This document shows positions 1,314-2,191 of a stretch of DNA of 64,000 nt, piece after piece. A model generated the notes under the pieces. The model had not been told where the DNA came from and ran no database searches. It was given only the letters and a program-made list of their open reading frames with translations. The position numbers and the translations under genes are program-made. Within the stretch, counting starts at the first letter, position 1; each line of letters begins with the position of its first letter. Source of the stretch: Candidatus Gastranaerophilaceae bacterium (GTDB taxonomy: Bacteria > Cyanobacteriota > Vampirovibrionia > Gastranaerophilales > Gastranaerophilaceae). Where the stretch lies: the NCBI GenBank assembly GCA_045638605.1, contig JAZUBS010000034.1, positions 30,112 through 94,111 on the forward strand, written 5' to 3'.

Positions 1314-1469
1314 ATTCCTGAAACAAGTTCAGCATGACGGTTTAGGTGGGGTTTCGTTTAAGATGCCGAAACAAGTTCTATAGTTGTCACTATAAGTGAC
1401 TTACTAATAACAAAACCAACACATTCATTTTCAATTGTAACAAATTCGTAACAAAACACATTCAAACTC

Positions 1470-1496
1470 TAAAGTTTTTAAAAATTATGCCGATAT
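1470..1496 (+). promoter_or_regulatory. sigma-28 (FliA/SigD)-type promoter
   Basis: TAAAGTTT (1470-1477), 11 nt, then GCCGATAT (1489-1496). This equals the published TAAA-N15-GCCGATAT (B. subtilis SigD) and TAAAGTTT-N11-GCCGATAA (enteric FliA) consensus. It lies about 90 nt upstream of the 1588 CDS. Confidence 0.7.
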
Positions 1497-1587
1497 ATAT
1501 ATTACAAGGAGCAAACCAAGTAAAATCGGTTAAACAATTCTAAGTAAGTAAAGTAAGTAAAAGTTAAGTCTGAAAAGGGGAACGACA

Positions 1588-2121
1588 ATGAACTTCGGTA
1601 TCAACAACGGGATATCCGCAATAGATTCTGCTGCAATCAAAGAAGTTGCGGGACAAATATTCTCAAATGCAACCAAAAAAGACGTGCAAGCGTTCAAGGT
1701 TGACTACTCAAAGTTCAACCGTGCATCACTTGGTGCGGACTTGTACGGTTCAAATTTGAACATAAATCAAGTTCAACAAATCTCTGTTAGAAATGCTGGA
1801 TTCGATTTAAACTTTCAACAAAATCAAGCAATTGTTGCAAGTGTTCAATATTTGAACAAAGTAAACGCCTACAACGCTTACGGTGTGCCATTAAATATGG
1901 ATGGCAAAATTAATCTTCCCCAAGAAGAATTACGTCAAAATTTGAACACACAAAATTTTTTCCAAACTCAATCAGCTACTTTGGTAGATGAAACACCAAC
2001 TCTGTTTGAAGGCGGAGAAAACCAAGGTTCAAATCCATTCAAATTCATTACTCTAAACTCAGTGGACTCTAATGAGAATGAACAAGACTCCCAAAACGCT
2101 AGCATATTTAAGCTAGCATAA
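1588..2121 (+). CDS. hypothetical protein, N/Q-rich, 177 aa, likely late flagellar-regulon member
   Basis: ORF with GGGG RBS (aaaaggggaacgacaATG), preceded by the sigma-28-type promoter and followed by an intrinsic terminator. No flagellin or FlgM motifs recognised. Confidence 0.7.
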   Translation: MNFGINNGISAIDSAAIKEVAGQIFSNATKKDVQAFKVDYSKFNRASLGADLYGSNLNINQVQQISVRNAGFDLNFQQNQAIVASVQYLNKVNAYNAYGVPLNMDGKINLPQEELRQNLNTQNFFQTQSATLVDETPTLFEGGENQGSNPFKFITLNSVDSNENEQDSQNASIFKLA

Positions 2122-2148: not shown

Positions 2149-2177
2149 AAGACAACCTTCCAGTTGTCTTTTTTTTT
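2149..2177 (+). terminator. intrinsic terminator
   Basis: Perfect 8-bp stem AAGACAAC/GTTGTCTT, 6-nt loop, followed by a run of T. Confidence 0.8.
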
Positions 2178-2191
2178 ATGTAAATAAACAA

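Follow-up and report, generated by a model that had tools for sequence, protein, structure and literature searches.

The late (class 3) flagellar promoters recognized by sigma-28 factors (FliA, SigD or WhiG) follow the consensus TAAAGTTT-N11-GCCGATAA. A promoter of this type precedes the gene considered here, which encodes an unnamed protein of 177 residues and lies in a stretch of 64,000 nucleotides (hereafter the window) of a Candidatus Gastranaerophilaceae genome (2.02 Mb, 31% G+C, 35 contigs), where the window corresponds to C34:30112-94111; C numbers denote contigs of this genome, G numbers sampled genomes and L numbers orthologous loci. Its relatives assign this genome to the Gastranaerophilales, non-photosynthetic bacteria also called Melainabacteria. 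They are widespread, uncultured gut relatives of the cyanobacteria, and their flagellar system is poorly understood. With the classical sigma-28 promoters this locus shares both promoter elements, their spacing, the presence of a FliA orthologue and a flagellin gene of the same genome that carries the motif, but its product has no relative among known flagellar proteins, and most of its orthologues add a tandem repeat resembling the cyanobacterial HLR1 element (the RpaB box) at a fixed upstream distance.

The HLR1 consensus is (G/T)TTACA(T/A)(T/A)-N2-repeat, and RpaB activates transcription when bound in the zone from -66 to -45 (PMC6525291). Most orthologues of the present gene likewise pair direct repeats of 8 nucleotides (nt), 2 nt apart, in the activating zone of RpaB; the differences are that the core promoter is of the sigma-28 type, that the host is non-photosynthetic, that the element is reversed in orientation and that its period is 11 nt in the clade of the window. 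Melainabacteria are reported to have homologues of RpaB and NblS, to which no role could be assigned in the absence of photosynthesis (Di Rienzi et al. 2013; PMC3787301).

At the protein level, the comparison is with two flagellar proteins, FlgM and FlaG. FlgM (PF04316, TIGR03824) and the 177-residue protein are both small, largely disordered, sigma-28-dependent and devoid of cysteine, and the helices of both probably fold on a partner. They share no sequence or profile similarity, however; the 177-residue protein is about twice as long, the conserved part is N-terminal in its family but C-terminal in FlgM, and the genome holds a separate FlgM-like gene. FlaG (PF03646), which antagonises the docking of FliS-flagellin on FlhA and limits filament length in Campylobacter jejuni (PMC11536152), can serve as a model of a domain-less protein acting on the export gate, being, as is predicted for the 177-residue protein, small, late and co-expressed with flagellin, but the latter gives no match to PF03646.

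As read from its sequence, the gene is a stand-alone, one-gene transcription unit with its own terminator, to be read by FliA (sigma-28); the leader is unstructured and rich in A and G, and the ribosome-binding site is strong. The explanation favoured here, with a probability of roughly 0.55, combines this sigma-28 unit with an export-linked product and with modulation through the HLR1-like element. A sigma-28-dependent late gene is in itself of a known kind, whereas an HLR1-like box beside such a promoter is foreign to the classical examples. The parts of the unit, in order, are as follows.

1434..1452, forward strand: tandem octamers ATTGTAAC and TTCGTAAC, a candidate response-regulator site
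1470..1477, forward strand: sigma-28 -35 element TAAAGTTT, of which TAAAG is kept in orthologues
1489..1496, forward strand: sigma-28 -10 element GCCGATAT, 11 nt past the -35 octamer
1503..1587, forward strand: putative 5′ leader of about 85 nt, its start inferred near 1503-1505, 7-9 nt past the -10 element
1540-1569, forward strand: AAGT-rich tract ctaagtaagtaaagtaagtaaaagttaagt inside the leader, variable in length between species
1577-1580, forward strand: ribosome-binding site GGGG, followed by ATG at 1588
1588..2121, forward strand: open reading frame (ORF) of 177 codons plus stop codon, member of an unnamed Gastranaerophilales-specific family
2149..2179, forward strand: intrinsic terminator with an 8-bp stem (AAGACAAC / GTTGTCTT; hairpin 2149-2170) and a T-run

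Except for the octamers, these parts had already been named in a sequence-only reading of the same DNA, and all of them were recovered: the promoter TAAAGTTT-N11-GCCGATAT was found at 1470-1496 as claimed, and the leader of about 85 nt with its AAGT-rich tract, the ribosome-binding site, the ORF and the terminator can be read as described. The product is also rich in asparagine and glutamine, as had been said (23.7% for the two residues together, against 10.2% in the long ORFs of the genome).

For a sigma-28 promoter the expected elements were a -35 of TAAA(GTTT) and a -10 of GCCGATAA, 11 nt apart (15 nt from TAAA to GCCGATAA), and 15 of the 16 consensus positions are matched at 1470-1496. The window contains the pattern TAAA-N14-16-GCCGATA a single time, with 0.07 occurrences expected, which bears out the earlier statement that no other GCCGATA box with a well-spaced TAAA is present there. 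Genome-wide, this pattern is found 19 times against 4.1 in shuffles, and its TAAAG version 14 times against 0.63. The genome has a single FliA orthologue that passes the NCBIfam cut-off (C23:29304-29966; TIGR02479, 234.6 bits with a cut-off of 189.6), as it should if the promoter is used, and FliA is found in 59 of the 61 Gastranaerophilales genomes. Six ORFs of the genome bear Flagellin_N, and one flagellin gene, at C18:18747 (PF00669, 130.9 bits), has TAAAGTAT-N11-GCCGATAT upstream of it. Since the FliA orthologue is present and this flagellin has the same box, neither of the two testable outcomes that would count against a sigma-28 promoter (a genome devoid of FliA, or late flagellar genes with another motif) was obtained.

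The promoter is also conserved in evolution. In 46 orthologous loci from different species, for which the 150 nt 5′ of each start codon were inspected, a sigma-28-type box is found without exception, being strict (TAAAG-N14-16-GCCGATA) in 31 loci, of a medium class with one or two changes in the -10 element in 11, and looser in four; the strict pattern is absent from all 3295 control segments of the same loci. In an information profile of the 46 loci anchored on the -10 element, GCCGATA stands out as the most conserved block of the region. The genes that flank the orthologues vary by clade, FtsH-like, MiaB-like and HD-GYP proteins being among them. Judged from these loci, therefore, the gene changes its chromosomal place yet always retains its sigma-28 box, and the unit may be regarded as a mobile monocistronic cassette of which the promoter is the constant companion. 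Five of the loci (L012, L015, L024, L025 and L035) come from records of metagenome-assembled genomes titled Muribaculaceae, Clostridium sp. or Clostridia; since the gene is specific to the Gastranaerophilales and is present there under a promoter of the same architecture, the titles are probably mislabelled.

With a FliA orthologue, a flagellin gene under the same box and the box in all 46 orthologous loci, the sigma-28 interpretation is upheld, and dependence of the promoter on sigma-28 can be considered very probable. The match could still be incidental if another promoter were in use, such as one of the housekeeping sigma factor activated through the upstream octamers. This has little to recommend it and may be regarded as hardly credible: the transcription start is an inferred and not an experimental one, and the tandem octamer also stands upstream of other promoter types in the genome, but the box lies at the right distance from the start codon in every orthologue, its strict form is missing from the controls, its -10 element is the best conserved block of the region, and no sigma-70-like site was found on the forward strand from 900 to 2400. 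That the octamers themselves make up a sigma-70 promoter was rejected on account of the spacing as well as the lack of such a site.

The octamers ATTGTAAC (1434-1441) and TTCGTAAC (1445-1452) follow each other with a period of 11 nt, and the opposite strand of 1434-1452 reads GTTACGAA-N3-GTTACAAT, which resembles the cyanobacterial HLR1 element. Its centre lies at about -61 from the inferred start, that is, within the zone from -66 to -45. The exact reverse complement of HLR1, [AT][AT]TGTAA[AC]-NN-[AT][AT]TGTAA[AC], is present in 37 of the 46 orthologous loci (41 with a relaxed pattern), with its first base 35-36 nt 5′ of the -35 T, and in none of 10,920 control segments. The exact consensus occurs 27 times in the genome of the window, compared with 1.1 in shuffles, and is situated upstream of several promoter types (for instance C26:14483, and C2:1454 and C35:30488 on the reverse strand); seven of the 21 sigma-28 promoters of this genome have a half-site at the same place.

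A regulator that could act at these sites is encoded at C3:18949-19656 on the reverse strand. It is 69% identical over 236 residues to Synechocystis RpaB, the next paralogues being 34-39% identical; these identities hold for the RpaB sequence that was used as query. The HLR1-like box and the RpaB-like regulator together suggest a dual control of the sigma-28 promoter, in which an RpaB-type regulator would modulate it through the tandem octamer about 60 nt upstream in most species and probably also here. The same sites may represent an RpaB regulon in an organism that is related to cyanobacteria but does not photosynthesize, and a box of this kind combined with a homologue 69% identical to RpaB offers a concrete candidate target for the question of what RpaB and NblS do in Melainabacteria.

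The protein itself belongs to what appears, from sequence comparison, to be a new, order-specific family. It comprises 332 clusters at 90% identity, all of about 165-180 residues and unnamed or hypothetical in every source, and occurs in 54 of the 61 genomes of the order with one copy each, in 43 of the 45 high-quality ones and in 31 of the 32 genera; identity is 35-40% across the whole order, and no paralogue exists in the genome of the window. None of the 115 genomes from other orders of the class has the family, although 78 of them have FliA. The sequence-only reading had proposed a lineage-specific flagellar or motility component, and the first half of this proposal stands, the family being restricted to the order. 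The second half stays a hypothesis: flagellated, FliA-bearing sister orders do without the family, which thus cannot be a general part of the flagellum, and there is neither a conserved flagellar neighbourhood nor a shortage of probably non-flagellar orphans under sigma-28 control. Within the order, co-occurrence of the family with FliA is uninformative, because FliA is universal there. One genus, sampled three times (G023, G028 and G032), lacks the family though FliA is present, and among all genomes of the order a FlgM match above the Pfam cut-off was obtained in G023 alone.

The 177-residue protein contains no cysteine, tryptophan or histidine, and in 76 family members cysteine and tryptophan amount to 0.02% and 0.04%, respectively. 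The N-terminus is conserved as M-[SAG]-[LIF]-[GN]-[IV], often followed by LNTN, and recalls the MSIVVNTN of flagellin, the resemblance being confined to the first ten or so residues. Further conserved blocks are IDxxAxxEVxxQIF, SKF(N/R)RxxxGxDLY, RNAGLD, QYLNxxAA and (V/M)(E/D)GK, and the C-terminus is conserved as (N/S)IFA. The sequence shows no hydrophobic stretch at its N-terminus that could be a Sec signal peptide. Two AlphaFold2 (AF2) runs, with alignments of 49 and 76 sequences, gave the same three helices (residues 14-31, 59-69 and 80-98, with a local confidence, pLDDT, of about 70-78) but no global fold, the overall pLDDT being 54 and 59.5 and the predicted template modelling score (pTM) 0.18 and 0.20. 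The N-terminal 110 residues, which hold the three helices, are the conserved part, whereas the C-terminal half is predicted to be disordered; residues 1-4 have a pLDDT below 50, and the first predicted helix starts only at residue 14. Such low confidence may, however, come from a shallow alignment (effective number of sequences about 2.8) and not from true disorder.

The disordered tail carries an invariant NPF at residues 149-151 (2032-2040 of the window). The EH domains of eukaryotes, each a pair of EF-hands, have NPF as their ligand. Proteins with EF-hands or EF-hand-like loops exist in the sigma-28 regulon of the genome (C12:64498 and the 409-residue neighbour described below), and by analogy they might be a partner of NPF, which is only an idea.

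Similarity searches assign the protein to no described family. Pfam gave chance matches only for the protein and 49 family members, NCBIfam gave nothing, a sequence profile search of the PDB had no match at E<=10, and the single Foldseek match of the AF2 model in the PDB (E 9.4) is meaningless. The earlier statement that it is not flagellin, FlgM, FliS, FliD or FlaG proved right in the Pfam and NCBIfam searches. More specifically, a flagellin or axial protein was rejected for want of any Flagellin_N, Flagellin_C or Flg_bb_rod match in Pfam, and identity with FlaG because PF03646 matches none of the 49 family members. A replacement of FlaG was likewise discarded: seven or more other families of the order have true FlaG homologues together with the 177-residue family, which is thus no substitute for them.

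FlgM was considered both as the identity of the protein, which was rejected (no PF04316 or TIGR03824 match at E<=1, and a probability of 0.5% in an hhalign profile-profile comparison of the family with FlgM), and as a function that the protein might have taken over. A lineage-specific substitute for this anti-sigma-28 factor would explain why Pfam FlgM finds nothing convincing in the genome of the window and passes its cut-off in one of the 61 genomes of the order, and FlgM is likewise small, disordered, exported and sigma-28-dependent. Yet a divergent FlgM-like ORF of 114 residues is present at C8:2070-2414, which shows homology to the ORFs that are weak or positive FlgM matches in relatives and aligns with the FlgM motifs of B. 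subtilis and Salmonella; moreover, the profile-profile probability is just as low for this purpose, and genome G007 carries both proteins. The substitute reading is therefore already largely refuted. The FlgM-like ORF lies on the reverse strand of C8, is followed by a protein of 411 residues that looks, by eye, like a tetratricopeptide repeat (TPR) protein, and has a pair of palindromes, TAGACCACATGGTCTA and TAGACCAAATGGTTGTA, in front of it; similar ones occur upstream of FlgM-like genes in two other families of the order (L062 and L064) and may be considered a candidate operator.

The kind of product that sigma-28 controls in this genome has to be taken into account when a role is assigned. 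Sigma-28-type boxes precede about 21 genes (further sites are at C23:128686, C12:70040, C23:143038 and C24:106340 and, on the reverse strand, at C28:19604, C26:54753, C9:2799 and C11:28275). Besides flagellin and two HD-GYP-type signalling proteins, nearly all of the products lack a Pfam domain; among these are giants of 1027, 2246 and 3987 residues and three proteins of a family with the motif MG(M/L)(S/A)ASQAR.L.LTAR. No N-terminal module was found that the 177-residue protein has in common with other sigma-28-driven proteins of the genome; several of the latter have N-termini that begin in an M-x-I-N-G-I-like manner. Within this set, the present gene is the most conserved orphan seen (single-copy, near-universal in the order and absent elsewhere), and it may offer a clean entry point to the function of an enlarged sigma-28 regulon.

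Late export substrates are expected to have no Sec signal, a disordered N-terminus and little cysteine and tryptophan, and all three features are found in the 177-residue protein. Disorder, scarcity of cysteine and tryptophan, conserved termini, absence of a Sec signal and late expression together mark the substrates of flagellar type III export and their regulators. The product may thus be a substrate of late flagellar export, or else a regulator tied to this export and folding on a conserved partner, a proposal with a nearly even chance of being right. Under it, a largely unfolded product would be made only after completion of the hook-basal body and would either leave the cell by the type III channel of the flagellum or, as a late-stage regulator, dock on this channel or on its chaperones, in a mode akin to those of FlgM and FlaG but with homology to neither. 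The conserved N-terminal 110 residues with their three helices would probably fold only on the conserved partner.

A number of observations weigh against the combined explanation, in addition to the inferred start, the dependence of the identities on the RpaB query and the shallow alignment given above. Regarding the product, sigma-28 drives many probably non-flagellar proteins, so that membership in the regulon does not by itself imply a flagellar role, and there is no conserved gene neighbourhood across the orthologous loci, nor a flagellar gene as a constant neighbour; the export reading draws solely on composition, disorder and conserved termini. Regarding the upstream element, the flagellin promoter is without it, and the version in the window deviates from the HLR1 consensus by one mismatch and by a spacing of 3 nt instead of 2. 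Specifically, the period in the clade of the window is 11 and not 10, and the second repeat starts with C and not T, the 11-nt period being common to the close relatives L010, L012 and L014. With this period and the changed base, a function of the element is less certain here than in the main clade.

The same features of the product can be read in other ways. It could be a purely cytoplasmic, sigma-28-dependent regulator or adaptor, which folds on a conserved intracellular partner (e.g. a sigma factor, CsrA/FliW or an enzyme of cyclic di-GMP metabolism) and is never exported. The strong conservation of the N-terminal 110 residues in an otherwise unstructured protein would fit this, as would its place among the single-copy core genes of the order, where one would look for a housekeeping regulator and not for a diversifying effector; CsrA and FliW are present, and sigma-28 also drives the two HD-GYP-type signalling proteins. 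Such a regulator is nevertheless unlikely, given that so little cysteine and tryptophan, an N-terminus like that of flagellin and conservation at the extreme C-terminus are more often features of flagellar export substrates, and that no DNA-binding or known regulator domain was found in the Pfam and NCBIfam searches.

Alternatively, as one of the expanded set of sigma-28 orphans, the protein may be a secreted, non-flagellar cargo with an extracellular action on the host or other microbes, much like the Cia, Fed and FlaC proteins that Campylobacter secretes through its flagellum. The giants and other Pfam-less proteins under the same class of promoter speak for this, together with the export-substrate-like composition without a Sec signal, and the invariant NPF in the disordered tail could serve as a short linear interaction motif. 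Effectors, however, usually vary in copy number and presence, and a gene that is strictly single-copy, near-universal and 35-40% identical across the order is more suggestive of purifying selection on an internal partner, which makes a secreted cargo improbable.

The export-linked product of the favoured explanation can also be carried one step further. The family might be a gatekeeper, peculiar to this order, of type III export by the flagellum, expressed late through FliA and tuned by a two-component system of the RpaB/NblS type through the HLR1-like box; it would dock on the export gate or on a chaperone by means of its three conserved helices and its NPF/IFA tail and would set the time at which flagellin and the many sigma-28-driven orphan and giant proteins leave the cell. 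This extension is speculative and rather a long shot; if it were true, it would provide the first set of RpaB targets in non-photosynthetic relatives of cyanobacteria.

Between promoter and ORF, the leader of the window differs from that of distant orthologues, where it is short (23-37 nt, AGTACAAGCAATAAGGGGT); the long leader is limited to the clade of the window. An alignment with six close relatives shows conserved ends (5′ TACAAGGAG, 3′ GTCTGAAAAGGGGAACGA) and a middle tract of variable length, and the AAGT tract is accordingly read as a slippage-prone spacer and not as a specific element. The leader is less structured than its shuffles (minimum free energy -5.8 kcal/mol, z +1.76), and a search of Rfam with 900-2300 returned a single chance match inside the ORF and thus no known leader RNA. 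For a CsrA-controlled leader, the B. subtilis hag leader served as the standard, with two GGA sites, one of them over the ribosome-binding site, and with CsrA and FliW present. The leader of the window has the GGA-containing sequences ACAAGGAG (1504-1511, 5′-proximal) and AAAGGGGAA (1574-1582) about 65 nt apart, and both CsrA and FliW are encoded in the genome. The folded leader shows no hairpin that presents the GGA motifs, and distant orthologues have only the GGA site at the ribosome-binding site; a CsrA site in the leader is possible.

The neighbours of the gene in the window are aroF and a divergent orphan of 409 residues. The latter occupies 2-1018 on the reverse strand (full ORF C34:29900-31129), is rich in lysine, threonine, glutamate and aspartate, and gives a marginal EF-hand-like match only (E 0.098). 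As it has no homologue beside any orthologue of the 177-residue gene, the pairing of the two genes is local to this genome. Between them, at 1270-1400, lies a G+C-rich intergenic element, which is a dispersed repeat, pieces of it recurring with 76-100% identity at 53 places of the genome, and which looks like a repetitive extragenic palindromic (REP) element or a miniature inverted-repeat transposable element (MITE).

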